Of a stretch of 64,000 bases of DNA, positions 51,001 through 63,000 are shown in pieces. Made by a program: the position numbers. Numbering within the stretch: the first letter of the stretch is position 1; the number at the start of each line of letters is the position of its first letter. This DNA is from an uncultured Verrucomicrobiae bacterium (GTDB lineage Bacteria > Verrucomicrobiota > Verrucomicrobiia > Chthoniobacterales > Chthoniobacteraceae). Location: positions 460,585 to 524,584 of the forward strand of contig CAVYKI010000010.1 of assembly GCA_963769025.1 (NCBI GenBank). The letters run 5' to 3'.

Positions 51001-54000
51001 TCCACCGCAGACGCAGCTTCAGGTTTCGCTTGAGCGTTCCGAGATCCATGAAGGGTTCAGTTTTCGCACGCTCAGAATGCGCCGGATCTCAGCAGCGTGT
51101 GGAAATCGTCGAGGTAAATGCCGGCGATCCGATCGATCGAGAATCGCTGTGCGGTGGCGGTTGCGCTCTCCCCCGCCCTTCCGAGCCGCGCGGGATCCTG
51201 GATCAATTCCCGGATTTTCGCCGCGAGCACTTCCGCAGGCTGCGGCGCGCGATGATCGAAGACGAAACCGTTCGCCCCGTCCCCGACAAAGTCGCGGAAG
51301 CACGCGAGGTCGGACACCAGCGCGGGACATCCGTGCGACATGGCTTCGAGCGGCGCGACGCCGAAGGTTTCCCCGCGTTCAGCGAGCGACGGATAAACGA
51401 AAAGGGATGCCATCTGGTAGAAACGCGCGAGCTGGCCGGAATCGAAGACGGGGCCGGTGAACTCGACGCGTTCGGCGACAGGCTGTGCGATTCGCTTCAA
51501 CTCTTCAAGGTAGCTCTTCCCTCCACCGCCCGCGTTCGCCTCCCATGGCCCGACGATGACGAGCTTCCACTCCGGAGGGATCGTGCCCGCGAGCAACCCC
51601 ATCGCCTCGACGAGCAGGTGGATGCCCTTTTCCGGATGCACCCGGCCCGCGTAGAGCAACACCTTCCCGCGCGAGGACACATCCGTCGGAGCGCCGGGAG
51701 GCGGGGCGTCCGGAAGCGGATATGGAATGCAACGCACGGCGGCGGCCCGATCCGGGACTTCCTCGATGATGGCGGACTGGATCGGCCCGGACACCGTCTG
51801 CAGGCGTGCGGCGTGGCGGTAGAATCGCATCTGCCCGCGCGGATAGCGCGCGACGTGGACGTAGAGCTTTCCGGGGCGCTGCGAGCGGATGAGCGCCGGC
51901 AGCCAGAAGGTATTCGTGACGACGATGTCCGCCGGCGGCAGCAGCAGGCGCACACGCAGCGAGTAGAGAAGGTCCAGCAACTTCAGGAAGAGCAGCCGTC
52001 GCGGAGCGTCGAAGCCTCCCGCGCGAATGTGACGGACCCCGCCGATGACCTCCGTCCGCGGCAGCCCGCCGAAGCTCCGCGAGATGTGCGTCACCTCATG
52101 GCCGCGGCGCGCGAATTCCTTGCCGAGTGCAAACCAGATCTTCTCCACCGCCCCGCCACGCAGGGGCGGAACCGGCAGGAACGCGCCCTGGACAATGGTG
52201 ATTCTCATCGCGCGCACACGAACACAGTTGCCGCCCGCAATGCAATTTCGCATTCAAGCTGCACCCTGGACTGCGGCAGCTCGCTGCCGCTTTGGAGGGC
52301 GAGCCTCGGCGAGCGCGGGGGATCGGAGGGGAATCCGGTGATGGAAGTTCCGCAGGGCTTCCTCGGCAAGCCTCGGAAACAAAAGCGGCAGCCTTGGACT
52401 GCGGCAGCTCGCTGCCGCTTTGGAAGGCGAGCCTCGGCGAGCGCGGGGGATCGGAGGGGAATCCGGTGATGGAAGTTCCGCAGGGCTTCCTCGGCAAGCC
52501 TCGGAAACAAAAGCGGCAGCCTTGGACTGAGGCAGCTCGCTGCCGCTTTGGAAGGCGAGCCTCGGCGAGCGCGGGGGATCGGAGATTTCCTCGGCAAGCC
52601 TCGGAAACAAAAGCGGCAGCGAGCTGCCGCAGTCCAGGGGGGGAGGCCGGGCAACGCGCCTACACGTCGCCGTCGCCGTCGGCTTCGGCGATTTTGTCGA
52701 ACCTGAAGCTGTAGATCGTCTTCACCCACGCGGGCGTGCATGCGCGCTCGAATGCGGCGGCGGAACACCATTCGTATTGGGCCGCCAGCGGAACGAGGCC
52801 GTGGTGGGCGGGATTGTTGTGCGTGTAGCTGAGCCGCGAGAGATACGATTCCTCATGGGTGAGGCGGGTCTCGCGGTAGTTTTGCCAGATGCGCCGCCCC
52901 TCGGTGCCATCCAGCCGGTTGATGTGCCGGGTGATGTCCCCGTGCAGGTGCTTCAGGAATGTCCGGAGCGACCCGGCCGAGGTCGCGCCTTCGGGACTAT
53001 GCGCGATGAAGTGATAGTGATTCGGGAGGACGGCCCATGCTTCCATTCGCCAGCGATAGTGTGCGGAGAGTTCCAGCAAATGATCACGCACCCACGTCAG
53101 GCGTTCGGGTGTGTGAAAATGGCGGATCTTTTCGCGGGTTCGCGCCGTGACGAAATACGAACCCGATTCCCCGAGCCGATGTGGCGGTGCGTGGGGCCAA
53201 TCCCGCGTGCCCTTGCCAGCGGAGTCCTGTGTCATCCGGCCGACGCTGGCGGGCACTCGCCCGGCGGTCAACGAAGGAGTGCGCCCTGGACTGCGGCAGC
53301 TCGCTGCCGCTTTTCCTTCCGAAGCTTGCTGAGGAAGCCCCCCGCACTCGCCGAGGCTCGCCCTCCAAAGCGGCAGCGAGCTGCCGCAGTCCAGGGACGC
53401 CGCTCCCATTCACGACACGTTCTTTCCCGTCGGCTGGATCGTCCGGATCAGCGCCTCGGCCGCCTGGGTGACTTCGAAACGCGACCGGAAGCTGCGCTCG
53501 GCGACCGGCTTCATCGCCTCCCTTTGCGCGGCGGGCATCGCGAGCCAGCGCCGGAGGAGCCGCACGGTGCCCGGTTCGTCGTCGTCGTCCACGAGCCCGG
53601 CGCCATCGGCCTCGATCTCGCGCCAGATGTTCACCTTGTTGGAAATGAGCACGGGCGTCCCGCAGGCGAGAGCCTCGGCGACGGCGATGCCGAAATTTTC
53701 CTGGTGCGACGGGAGGATGAACACCTCGGCCAGGCGCAGAAGTCCCCACTTCAGATCGCCGGCGACCATGCCGGTCCACACGATGCGGCCGGCAATGCCG
53801 AGGCCGGCTGCGAGCGCGCGGAGTTCATCCGCCCATCCGGTCTGATCCGGTCCGGCGAAGACGAGGCGGATGCCGTCATCGGCCGCCGCCGTTTTTGCGA
53901 AGGCGCGCAGGAGCAGGTCGCAGCCTTTCTTTTCGTGGATACGGCCGAGGTAGAGAAAGACGCGCCGGCCTTCGAGCTCCGGGAACTTTGCGAGCACGGC

Positions 54001-60000: not shown

Positions 60001-63000
60001 ATGAGAGCATCGCGCTCCCGGCCACGGCCAGCGACGCGGCCATCGCCAGATACTTCCCGTACACCTTTCCGCGCAGAAAGTGATTCACTAGGAACGCGGC
60101 CGCCAGACTGAGAAAGGTCGCAAGGCCCGTGTTGTAGGAAAAGAGACCGGCCGCGCGCACTTTCTCCACGTCGCCGACGGCGACCCCTGCGAGCATCTGC
60201 CCGCCCGCGCCCTCGCCCGTGCCCTTGTTCACCCATGCCTCCGGTCCCGCGCCAAACTGTGCCGCGACCAGCGCGGCCATTGGCAAAGAAATGACAAGCA
60301 GCCATTTCCCCATCTTCTTCAAATCCTCGCGGCCGAGCGCATCCGCCATCAGGAAGATGAACGGGAAGTAGAGAAAATTCGTCCTCGCGCCGTACGCCGC
60401 GACGAGGAAATTGCCGCGGGTCAGCCCCGCCATGAAACACGCGACCGCAACCGCGAAGGTCACGAAGCCCAGAACAATGATGAAGGTGACAAAGCCGCTG
60501 CGCGGGAACCGGGCCTCCTTCAGCGCGAGGAGATAGGCCATCACCACCACGGGATCCTTCACGACAATCAGCGCATTCGCCAGGCCGGGAACCACCCATT
60601 TGCGGAGCGCACCCTCGATGATCAGCAGCCAGAAAAAGATCCAGATGCACGTCCTCACGCCGCGGTATTTCTCGCGCGCGGTATCGACGCCGGCAAAACT
60701 CCCCGCCGGAATGCCCGGCGGCAAGGCGTGCGCCTGCATCGGGAATTTGGGTGTGGCCGGGTCCATGAGCGGCTTAAAGCACAATCGGGTCCAAAGTCGA
60801 GCGGTCTGACGGTGGGACGGTGGGACGGCGGGGCCCTTGGACTGCGGCAGCTTGCTGCCGCTTTGGAGGGCGAGCCTCGGCGAGCGCGGGGGGAATGGGG
60901 AATTTCCCCGGCAAGCCTCGGAACCAAAAGCGGCAGCGAGCTGCCGCAGTCCAGGGCGCGTCACGGAGCAGCCGTCACGAGCGGGGCAAGGATCTCTGCG
61001 AGACCGCTCCGGTAATTCTCCCACGAACACCGCCGCGCAGTCTCCATGGCTGCGGCGCTCATTGCCTGGAGCCGCGGGCGGTCGGACGCGAGCAGTTCGA
61101 GCTTTTCCGCGATCGCCTCGGCCGAACGGATCGGGACGCCGAAGCCGTCCACTCCGTCGGTCACGATGTCGAGCCCGCCGCTGTTGCTCGTGGTGATGAC
61201 CGGCAGGCCCTGCGACATCGCCTCGAGCACCACGAGCCCGAAGCCTTCAAACAGCGACGGGAACACCAGCACATCGTGCTCGCTCATTTCGCGGAGCACC
61301 TCGGAATGGGGCACGGACGTCACCCACCGGTGCCGCTTCACCGCGGCGTTCAGCGGTTCGCATTCCTCCGACGTTTTCCTGCCGATCAATGTCAGCGTCA
61401 CGCCGCTTCCGAGCGCGGCGATGGCCTTCAGCACATATCCCAGCCCCTTGCGCTGCCCGAGCGAACCGACAAACAGCACGCGCAGCGGACGGTCGGACGG
61501 TCGGACGCTCGGATGGTCGGACGGAGCCGGGCCGCCATAGGGGATCACGTGGATCGGCGCGGTCATCCCGGGCGCGAGCTTCAGCGTGTCGCGCACAAAA
61601 TTGCTCGGCACCACGATCGTCGAGGCCGTCCGCAATTCGTCGTCCTTGCGCTGCAGCTTGGGCTCGCTGTCCGCGAGCCCGTCGAGCGTCGGCGCCCATG
61701 CCGGCTCCCGCTCGCGTTCCTCGCGGAAAATCGCGTGGGCCGCGCGCGTACCCGATCGGCAGTTCGTACACCCGGTGAATCCCCATCTCCGAAGCCACCC
61801 GGAACGTCTCCACCGCGCCGTCCTCGTACGCATAGACCGCGGACGGATTCAGCCGCGGCGGCGCTGTGCGCCATGTGGCGGTCCATCGCCTTGAAGACCG
61901 AGTCGATCGAAAATCGCGCATGCTCGCCACGGACGAGCGATCCGCATTTCAGCCGGATGGAAACCAGCCGCCCGAGTTCGCACCACGGCCGCGTGCGGAT
62001 GAAGGGCCTCAGCGCGTCTGGAAACGACCGGCGGCGCAGTTCGGCGCGCACGGCCCGCGGCAGCAGCCGGTTGATGAAGCTCCGGTCGTTCCAGCTGATC
62101 GAAGTCCACAGCTCGGCGAGCAGCCCCGCCTCCGCCATCGCGAGCGCGGCGTGTCGGGAGTTCTGGTTTCCGGTGGGATGGGAGAATGCAATCATGGCGC
62201 GATTCAGGAGCAGGGACGGTCAGGCTTTGCCATCGCCGATGTATTCCAGCCACTCCTTTGCCAGCGCGGCATTCGAATAGCGCCTGAGGTAAAATTGCTG
62301 GAGCCGCGCCCTGATCGATCTCCCCGCGCGCGAGCGCCTCCATCATCGTGCGGACTCCGCCGAGGAATCTTCCCTGCTCGGGCACCACGATGCAGTCGGG
62401 ATTGTCCGTCGCGTAGTCCGGGATGCCGCCGACGCCATTCGCGACGAAGGGCACCCCGCAAGCCATGGATTCCAGCAGCACGAGCGGCGCGCCTTCCGGG
62501 AAAACCGTCGGCAGCAGCGTCACATCGTAAGTCGCCAGCAAATCCGCATAGGCCTGCCCGCTGGGGTAGCGTCCCAGGCAGCGCACGCGATCCCCGATCC
62601 CGTTCGCTTTGACGAACGCCTCGATCTCCGCCTGCTCCGGCCCGGAGCCGTGGATGTCCAGCGTGCTCACCATGTCCTTCAGCGTGTCCCATTGCCGCAC
62701 GAGCCAGAACGCCTGCTTGCCCTCGACCAGCCGGCTGAAGAACCCCGCGCGCGCCGTCCCGATCGGCACGGCCTTCCGCACCGCCACCGGAAGCGTCGCG
62801 GTGAGTTCCAGCGGCTCGGGAAATGCGGGGATTGCGGCGAGCTTCTTCCGCCACCGGAATTCGCGCGCGAACGTCTCCGCGACGCGCGGCGACTGCCCGA
62901 TCACCTCGTCGAAAAACCGCCGCACCAGCGGGCGCGGATCCTTTTTTCCAAACGCCTCGCCCGACATCCCCTCGTAGAAAATCTTCCGCACCCGCGACGG

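Follow-up and report, generated by a model that had tools for sequence, protein, structure and literature searches.

Does the transposase gene embedded in a polysaccharide cluster of an uncultured Verrucomicrobiae bacterium account for the hairpin repeats on either side of it, and are these repeats of a new kind? The gene lies on the minus strand at 52660-53235 (C10:513244-513819) of the window, i.e. the whole stretch of 64,000 nt analysed here, and is an intact ORF of the RAYT (TnpA-REP) type encoding a protein of 191 aa (P0001). The first-pass annotation had described it as flanked by REPINs of a new REP class, mobilised by a RAYT clade across Verrucomicrobiota.

The RAYT gene and its repeats

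In a profile search, P0001 scored 83.8 bits against NCBIfam NF047646 (REP_Tyr_transpos; cut-off 80). It did not match Pfam Y1_Tnp at E 1e-3, in line with the incomplete coverage of class 2 that Quentin 2018 (PMC6006769) reported. The protein displays a WxHxPxH motif at its N-terminus, the HUH residues H73-Y74-H75 and a single catalytic tyrosine within the class 2 motif Y-x-x-x-N-P (Y137-THN-N141-P), followed by H145. These catalytic residues align to H59/H61/Y115/N119/H123 of the E. coli enzyme, and the best Foldseek match of the AlphaFold model (pLDDT 90) is 4ER8 (E 7e-9). By sequence, modelled fold and tree position, the gene product is a member of one RAYT clade and a predicted HUH/Y1 endonuclease acting on single-stranded DNA. 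As is typical of RAYT/TnpA-REP genes, it is chromosomal and of low copy number (one per haplotype), and its flanking repeats recur elsewhere in the genome. We looked for a sigma-70-like promoter at the gene and found none.

The repeat unit is a hairpin of 27 nt, with a T-GGA(C/G)-T foot, a GC-stem-GC and a TTT tail. Seventeen copies form six arrays in the window, from 52267 to 60953. The gene does carry REPs on both sides, but its left flank (52267..52636, 3' of the gene) is a +++- array of 128-bp tandem units that include truncated inverted REPs. One of its REPs, on the plus strand at 52267..52293, shows the T-GGAC-T foot, GC-closed stem, short loop and TTT tail, and one copy has a C>A stem change; the final two REPs of the array form a REPIN. 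On the 5' side of the gene, a head-to-head doublet (REPIN, 53287..53393) folds into one long hairpin (z = -8.7). A +-- array (54661..54860) occupies the gap between an amidotransferase (asparagine-synthase-type) gene and a GT4 gene, and a ++- array (56830..57057) the gap between the hexapeptide acetyltransferase and amidotransferase genes; a five-REP array (58870..59271, ++-+-) and another head-to-head REPIN (60838..60953) complete the set. The arrays lie in gaps between host polysaccharide genes (51072..61833, minus strand; three GT4, an amidotransferase, an acetyltransferase, a GT9 and one protein without Pfam match), which are context only and do not belong to the element.

We then searched the whole genome for the repeats. 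With up to four mismatches the 27-mer detected 60 copies, and with up to five 64, while a tag+stem+tail pattern detected 67 copies at 31 sites, with none in the reversed-genome control. About 23-24 inverted doublets, spaced by 77-111 bp, were counted by eye among the 27-mer matches. These values agree with the 62 copies and 22 doublets first reported, and the shared 7-nt start was found again (TGGACTG in 59 of the 67 pattern copies). It also proved correct that the repeats fill the intergenic gaps of the cluster and are scattered elsewhere, dispersed doublets being present on six further contigs. The repeats have the features of REPs and REPINs: repeated extragenic palindromes of 20-40 nt, in inverted doublets and clusters. 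A looser structural search of the genome was discarded in favour of the strict pattern (119 matches vs. 69 in the control), and an Rfam identity was rejected, the only matches being sub-threshold microRNA-like hairpins.

Contig C13 had been taken for a second haplotype of this region, with a true count of about 38 copies. The haplotype holds and the count does not: only C13 24785-37596 duplicates C10 (94% identity), the rest of C13 being no duplicate. Of the 24 copies on C13, 19 are therefore redundant, which leaves about 48 non-redundant copies in the genome, at 25 sites (2 doubtful).

Association of the repeats with one RAYT clade

The association proved stronger than first claimed. A REP was found within 700 nt of the homologous RAYT in 81 of 96 loci (including six loci fetched twice), and on both sides in 54. 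For the counts of feet, doublets, subclades, stems and flanks, we removed our own locus and the six twice-fetched loci; the homologous loci are kin, not independent. Across 80 homologous loci, the dominant hairpin feet within ≤500 nt of the RAYT were GGACT (117 feet, 43 loci) and GGAGT (83 feet, 36 loci), and the same unbiased count beyond 1 kb gave only 3 and 2 feet, respectively. The REP motif is present in all 14 foreign loci that score at least 171 bits with the clade profile, vs. 7 of the 82 lower-scoring RAYT loci, about 35 of which display GTAG/GTGG hairpins; L288 and L314, without a RAYT call, were left out of this comparison. When the motif was loosened, no REP was seen at 15 of 101 clade loci; in this stem and motif analysis, the clade member L071 had been sorted as non-clade.

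In the cognate REP, a T-GGA(G/C)-T foot precedes a hairpin closed by GC, and TTT follows on the 3' side; most copies are paired head-to-head. We selected stems by tag and tail alone, without requiring a hairpin: Watson-Crick pairing reaches 92.6% (shuffle mean 54.5%, max 62.6%), and pairs 3-7 show changes on both sides among 46 distinct cores. The stems thus vary by compensatory changes, as had been proposed.

At the genome level, the strict REP pattern occurs in 16 of 16 relative genomes with a clade RAYT vs. 19 of 44 without one, and eight of the nine genomes with at least 10 REP copies possess a clade RAYT. REPs without a clade RAYT were found in 10 of 109 phylum genomes, and such cases include G069 (28 copies, 99% complete genome) and G022 (13 copies). 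The wording "across Verrucomicrobiota" does not fit the distribution of the clade, which is patchy (11 of 120 sampled Verrucomicrobiota genomes) and extends to records labelled Planctomycetota, Chloroflexota, KSB1, Zixibacteria, Sumerlaeota and Chthonomonadetes. Cultured members are Chloroflexus aurantiacus, Brevifollis gellanilyticus and Haloferula. A phage search gave no match; viral contigs gave 11 single matches. The neighbourhoods of the homologues consist of unrelated genes, none of them fixed, with glycosyltransferases in 2 of 101 ORFs scanned (166 found). A polysaccharide-specific partnership of the RAYT was rejected, as the homologues have no fixed neighbourhood.

Spread of the repeats and competing readings

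The locus is, very probably, a REPtron with its REPIN population, i.e. GGA(G/C)-tagged REPs cognate to one RAYT clade. The transposase probably spreads the flanking hairpin repeats; mobilisation by the clade, asserted in the first-pass annotation, is what we infer by analogy with the TnpA-REP of E. coli and Marinomonas. The enzyme would bind the folded REP on single-stranded DNA and use the four foot nucleotides GGA(G/C), which align in register with GTAG, as its guide. It would cut at a dinucleotide, giving a 5'-phosphotyrosine, and the rejoining of strands would copy and rearrange the REPINs. Spread in this genome appears biased towards the vicinity of the RAYT gene. The REPtron has probably also moved between loci and between phyla, and in some genomes REPs probably persist after RAYT loss.

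We also looked for traces of movement. REP sites are the same in both haplotypes, and array order differs at 58870-59271 only (+-+-- in the C13 haplotype). Neither REPIN excision nor a filled/empty site was seen in the haplotype comparison or in contigs of four public runs, which contained only fragments and relatives and no empty REP site (two of these runs, X5 and X6, gave identical tables). No public run contained half of the query words, and no RNA run was among those listed. Array junctions in the window show no obvious C|T or G|T cut, slippage or recombination fitting equally well, and neither G|T nor C|T emerged as a fixed boundary when REP flanks and junctions were searched for a cleavage site.

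The arrays could now be passive, i.e. terminator-like or mRNA-stabilising hairpins retained by the host and multiplied by local slippage and gene conversion, with the RAYT as a bystander. They are present in every sizeable intergenic gap of the co-directional cluster, REPs followed by a T-run are terminator-like at 9 sites (1.1 in shuffles), REP cores are nearly identical between haplotypes though flanking genes differ by 7-26%, and GTAG-1 arrays lie in a Thauera EPS cluster (Di Nocera 2013). However, the RAYT is intact, with 99.5% identity from one haplotype to the other, the link with REPs persists across phyla in unrelated neighbourhoods, and the doublets dispersed on six other contigs also argue against this reading, which we consider unlikely; passive arrays and spread by the RAYT can both hold. 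An autonomous IS200/IS605-like element, whose "REPs" would be subterminal hairpins with MITE-like derivatives, is very improbable, even if the neighbourhoods vary, some genomes have two or three RAYT copies and Planctomycetota-labelled loci are nested in a Verrucomicrobiota subclade. There is one RAYT copy per haplotype here, copies from the same genome score against P0001 like distant homologues (43-59% identity), and a plasmid search gave no close match. Moreover, the Y-x-x-x-N motif is that of class 2, NF047646 is matched above cut-off and 4ER8 ranks far ahead of IS608/ISDra2 in the fold search, whereas IS200/IS605 members are recognised by Y-x-x-x-Q, near-identical multiple copies and often tnpB.

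Foot tag and closest known systems

In the careful tree, the clade, with ABY36092.1 included, has a support of 100/99. A single subclade of 41 rows, to which P0001 belongs, holds 32 of 32 GGAC-type loci and 1 of 31 GGAG-type loci (SH-aLRT 99 in one tree; 98/93 in the careful tree), and GGAG is probably the older tag, GGAC being that of this one derived subclade. The RAYT group nearest by profile score has GTAG-TT (L300) or GGAG-TT (L315, L316) feet on the same hairpin type. The tag is therefore one or two substitutions away from GTAG, and with GTAG-T or GGAG-T feet beside related RAYTs, GGA(G/C) looks like a GTAG guide that has drifted. The tag had been called unlike the known classes; it is indeed not CGTC, CnGA or GTGG/GTAG proper, but it stands this close to GTAG. 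The GTAG-T group is sister to the clade in a quick tree (91) and not in the careful tree, so that the support for a direction from GTAG to GGAG comes from profile scores and from REPs of similar appearance.

By the published guide rule, GGAC would shift cleavage from C|T to G|T. The flanks lean against this shift, as CT lies within 6 nt in 70 of 95 GGAC flanks and GT in 21, and the 5' flanks of both types are CT-rich. It is a tentative and rather doubtful proposal that the clade is an unrecognised multi-phylum RAYT subclass whose GGAC subclade made a natural guide switch, the fourth guide base changing once from G to C together with guide-pocket residues R32/R34, Q118 and R121, and cleavage from C|T to G|T. 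If true, a site other than CT would be known for a natural RAYT for the first time, and a comparison of GGAG and GGAC REPINs would test whether REPIN mobility is driven by guide pairing with the tag complement of the inverted REP. Somewhat less likely than not is the alternative that the foot is read in another register (e.g. N-T-G-G, a degenerate GTGG, plus an A-(G/C)-T spacer) or mainly by the protein; G/C would then not be a guide base and both subtypes would cut the same dinucleotide. The CT-rich flanks agree with this, as do the 24 of 97 head-to-head doublets mixing G and C feet and the GTGG-CGT-GC REPs of the non-clade loci L236 and L232, which resemble this foot. On the other hand, the register is fixed by the nearest group, where GTAG-T and GGAG-T feet occur on one hairpin type, and the G/C state follows the protein subclade, with changes at sites aligned to the E. 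coli guide-pocket residues R21, Q95 and W99, albeit in a single event.

As for novelty, the claim of a new class fails: Table S1 of Quentin 2018 (PMC6006769, rows 20-23) prints a near-identical REP for C. aurantiacus ABY36092.1, filed under subclass 2.2. This RAYT belongs to the same clade (41% identity to P0001, E 2e-49), and its REP shares the CGGCAGC/GCTGCCG stem; it differs by its foot (GGAGTG/GGCGTG, i.e. GGAG/GGCG and not GGAC) and 3-nt loop. In contigs that match its consensus, the TTT tail is often missing (144 matches, 24 of them with CTTT). The accessible sections of that paper do not treat this REP as a type of its own, and they flag misclassified arcs in subclass 2.2. That subclass, characterised there by DHLH / WE / YIHYNP and long or bulged REPs, does not accommodate the clade, whose motifs are NHYH, W(F/Q)xYxD/E and Y(V/T)HxNP. 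Our literature searches found no description of a GGAG/GGAC REP class.

The E. coli TnpA-REP/RayT (PDB 4ER8; Messing 2012, PMC3479197; group 2, subclass 2.2) has the same fold and the same HUH, catalytic Tyr, N and third His; its gene, too, lies between REP doublets, and the foot likewise precedes the hairpin on the 5' side. It differs by a structural identity of 21%, by the HUH context (EHMH/DHLH vs. NHYH here), by H101 and R104 (both Thr in P0001) and W99 (Arg), and the stem here is short and unbulged. Subclass 2.8, as Quentin 2018 describes it (GTAG-T-N feet, TTTA/TTCA loops, NHYH, proline-rich N-terminus, median 199 aa), fits the nearest group by description only (L300: 199 aa, GTAG-TT foot, TTTA loop). 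Our clade shares with that description NHYH and a Pro-containing N-terminus (WxHxPxH), and departs from it by G at foot position 2, a longer GC-closed stem and the TTT tail; a search for a link to subclass 2.8 gave no cyanobacterial match among the best 120 listed. Group 3 REPIN-RAYT systems (Pseudomonas, Stenotrophomonas, Marinomonas; Bertels 2011, PMC3116915; Corneloup 2021, PMC8266576) resemble the present one in their short, perfect palindromes with the foot at 1-2 nt from the stem, in the head-to-head arrangement of their REPINs and in the tandem clusters beside the RAYT gene, but have a GTAG/GTGG tag and hundreds of copies per genome, vs. 1-60 strict-pattern copies in the genomes searched. 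With a GGAC/GGAG + T foot, the repeats are not canonical GT[AG]G REPs (GTAG/GTGG 0-2 nt 5' of the stem), nor do they belong to the CGTC-tagged REPs without transposase, the class 3 CnGA REPs (CnGA foot, Y----Q enzyme) or the TIRYTs (long TIRs, GGGGWSAS).

The REPs tied to one RAYT clade are genuine and represent a variant of the known REP/RAYT system that spans several phyla; the underlying biology is of a known kind. The clade-wide link between RAYT and REP, and the GGAC switch in one derived subclade, look undescribed so far. REP finders built on GT[AG]G miss the GGA(G/C) family, which helps to account for orphan GGAGT repeats in many uncultured phyla. How REPINs spread and how a RAYT chooses its cut site are open questions in the field, and only a single enzyme has been retargeted through its guide, and this in vitro (PMC8266576). 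The clade, in which GGAG and GGAC tags both occur naturally, stems covary and some members are cultured, offers a ready enzyme pair to test the choice of cut site.

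An intact RAYT gene among local REP arrays

The window carries on its minus strand an intact gene (window 52660-53235, C10:513244-513819) encoding P0001, a 191-aa RAYT that scores 83.8 bits against the NCBIfam RAYT model NF047646 (cut-off 80). The AlphaFold model of P0001 (pLDDT 90) has E. coli TnpA-REP 4ER8 as its best structural match (E 7e-9), ISDra2 and IS608 (E about 4e-5) ranking behind it. The active site is intact: in the alignment, E. coli H59, H61, Y115, N119 and H123 correspond to H73, H75, Y137, N141 and H145. The first-pass annotation had described such a gene with REPs on both sides, and this is confirmed. 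Seventeen copies of the 27-nt REP occupy six intergenic arrays (window 52267-60953), on either side of the RAYT gene and between co-directional polysaccharide genes. Further along, on the same strand as this cluster, lies an exosortase (EpsH) gene with DUF3485 (window 41712-43286, minus strand). A second, distant RAYT-like domain (C10:14541-14963, minus strand; NF047646, 78 bits) is found inside an 849-aa open frame, and a repeated 16-mer containing GTAG lies near it.

In the whole genome, 60 REP copies were found with at most 4 mismatches, and a strict pattern of tag, stem and tail matched 67 copies at 31 sites (reversed control, 0), 59 of which start with TGGACTG. Contig C13 is an alternative haplotype: its positions 24785-37596 correspond to the end of C10 at 94% identity, and positions 1-8178 to C12 at 98%. 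For this reason 19 of the 24 C13 copies are redundant, leaving about 48 copies at 25 sites, two doubtful. The earlier suspicion of a second haplotype was thus correct, but its non-redundant total near 38 was too low. The distribution is strongly local: on the continuous C13 haplotype, nine of the 25 sites, with 22 copies, are found no more than about 25 kb from the RAYT gene. More generally, C1, C5, C7, C8, C11 and C13 duplicate parts of C3, C6, C9, C10 and C12 as alternative haplotypes (80-98% identity), so that the assembly overstates the numbers of repeats and genes.

The arrays have been rearranged between haplotypes, the order at window 58870-59271 being ++-+- in one and +-+-- in the other. 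REP cores are nearly identical between haplotypes while flanking genes differ by 7-26%. This divergence extends over window positions of about 57700-61300, with 0-4% across 52000-57700. The polysaccharide cluster is a recombined mosaic, whose REP arrays are retained in the same gaps across haplotypes. Inverted intergenic repeats with CGCAGAG-type octamer units (window 12379-12491, 20057-20285 and 33640-33777) form a candidate second small family; its genome pattern search gave 41 matches vs. 30 in the control.

A conserved hairpin beside homologous RAYT genes

Relatives (48-66% identity) are encoded at 164 loci; in the best 80 of these we then counted the 5-mers at the foot of every hairpin, with no motif presupposed. 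Of the 984 hairpins (75 kb) less than 500 nt from the gene, 117 had the foot GGACT (43 loci) and 83 the foot GGAGT (36 loci); the 478 hairpins more than 1 kb away (132 kb) yielded 3 and 2. When further loci were added, a REP was found within 700 nt of the RAYT gene in 81 of 96 loci, six of them fetched twice, and on both sides in 54; with a looser motif and de-duplicated loci, these values were 86 and 64 of 101. The consensus consists of a pyrimidine-rich flank, T, GGA(G/C), T, a GC-closed stem and TTT.

The stem is conserved as a hairpin. In 46 distinct cores, for which tag and tail were the sole selection criteria, Watson-Crick pairs made up 92.6% of the inner pairs, vs. 54.5% (maximum 62.6%) in 1000 shuffles, a comparison of related, non-independent sequences that does not amount to a p-value. 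Shifting the pairing by one brought four of five slid pairs below 0.3, and both-side changes were seen at stem pairs 3-7. About 18 REPs form regular alternating tandem arrays less than 650 nt from the RAYT gene at one locus (G082:C1:2191600-2194000), and forms with the same foot that are long and bulged occur at L077, L263, L277 and L295. Neighbouring genes differ and are unrelated between loci, with glycosyltransferases in 2 (first 101 of 166 ORFs scanned); few neighbourhoods are common to loci, e.g. LpxK-UDG in L049 and L050.

Specificity and range of the association

Control RAYT loci came from a phylum-wide NF047646 search (30 loci) and from 60 regions picked from search listings. Clade-profile scores were bimodal (at least 171 vs. 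at most 105 bits). Among the loci listed, the REP motif was present in all 14 foreign high-scoring ones and in 7 of 82 low-scoring ones. GTAG/GTGG hairpins were detected in about 35 of these 82, by a test that is conservative, since the E. coli control locus itself scored none. The clade was supported at 99 in a quick 121-row tree and at 100/99 in a careful 45-row tree.

Of 60 relatives, all 16 with a clade RAYT contained the strict pattern, vs. 19 of the 44 without, and 8 of the 9 genomes with at least 10 REP copies possessed a clade RAYT. Across 120 phylum genomes, 11 had a clade RAYT, 17 the strict pattern and 7 both. Four RAYT genomes lack the strict pattern (G082, G155, G164 and G167); at the three loci inspected, those of G082, G155 and G164, variant REPs adjoin the gene. 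Genome searches found no clade RAYT in G069 despite 28 REP copies, nor in the genome of L314 (G050:C122:3600-6000), where REPs of the GGA(G/C) class are present. IMG/VR contigs contain eleven single matches to the REP (L317-L327), which may be host DNA.

One member of the clade is already in print. In the list of manually identified REPs of Quentin et al. 2018 (PMC6006769), the Chloroflexus aurantiacus RAYT ABY36092.1 has four consensus sequences, whose feet are GGAGTG/GGCGTG and whose stem is CGGCAGC/GCTGCCG; they are placed in subclass 2.2. ABY36092.1 shares 41% identity with P0001 and lies inside the clade in the careful tree. Scanning metagenomes with its REP consensus gave 124 loci, two of which encode clade RAYTs adjoining the consensus; a search from one of these RAYTs led back to the Chloroflexus cluster containing ABY36092.1. 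In the sections of PMC6006769 consulted, the types described are limited to GT[AG]G, atypical 2.6 and CnGA. No paper describing a GGA(G/C) class was found by literature searches beyond whose reach lay most subscription journals and ISfinder, with parts of PMC6006769, PMC3733652, PMC8266576, PMC3479197, PMC5581495, PMC3116915 and bioRxiv 10.1101/2022.05.22.493013 consulted; the consensus Figs 1 and 9 or supplements of PMC3733652 could list this REP.

The REP-RAYT observation is real and well supported, and its range is wider than first proposed, reaching Chloroflexus and other phylum labels: further proteins or loci of the clade carry the labels Planctomycetota, KSB1, Zixibacteria, Sumerlaeota and Chthonomonadetes, although such labels can be mistaken for MAG contigs. 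The first-pass claim of a new REP class has to be narrowed: this is a variant within the REP/RAYT system, one member of which has been published; what is new is the clade-wide assignment of REP to RAYT and the GGAC subclade.

Proposed origin of the tag and possible cleavage

By profile score, the RAYT group nearest the clade comprises six loci (75-105 bits) with similar short hairpins and feet GTAG-TT (L300), GGAG-TT (L315, L316), GGGG-TC (L294) and AGAG-TT (L308). In this group of about 199 aa, which also includes L251, the foot drifts (GTAG, GGAG, GGGG, AGAG and others). The quick tree placed this group as sister to the clade (91), a position absent from the careful one. By description it resembles subclass 2.8 as outlined by Quentin et al. 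(GTAG-T-N feet, TTTA loops, NHYH, 199 aa), and may represent that subclass extended beyond Cyanobacteria. The simplest reading is that GGAG is GTAG with position 2 changed.

Among 76 clade loci with at least two REPs, 32 were typed as GGAC, 31 as GGAG and 13 as mixed. A single subclade (41 rows, support 99), which includes the window RAYT, contains all 32 GGAC loci, 8 mixed and 1 GGAG. This subclade differs at many sites, among them those that align with guide-pocket residues R21, Q95 and W99 of E. coli; the GGAC switch with guide-pocket changes happened only once and so does not count as statistical coevolution.

By analogy with the enzymes described in PMC3479197 and PMC8266576, the RAYT would bind the folded REP on single-stranded DNA, guide positions 4 and 3 would pair with the bases either side of the cut, and a phosphotyrosine would form before strand transfer. 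The published guide rule would then predict a C|T cut for GGAG and a G|T cut for GGAC. A GTAC guide is reported to yield GT/GA cuts with the Marinomonas enzyme, similar attempts with the enzymes of E. coli and Stenotrophomonas having been unsuccessful. It is quite possible, if somewhat short of probable, that both tag types instead keep one cut dinucleotide and that GGAC does not retarget cleavage: the 6 nt upstream of GGAC REPs contain CT in 70 of 95 flanks vs. GT in 21, and both tags occur together in 24 of 97 doublets. For GGAG REPs, CT is present in 55 of 89 flanks and GT in 45. Under the guide rule, a matching cut site would always be supplied by the tag complement in an inverted REP; this would agree with asymmetric excisions described from P. 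fluorescens. A secondary role of these REPs for the host, as terminator or mRNA-stability hairpins, is a plausible candidate.
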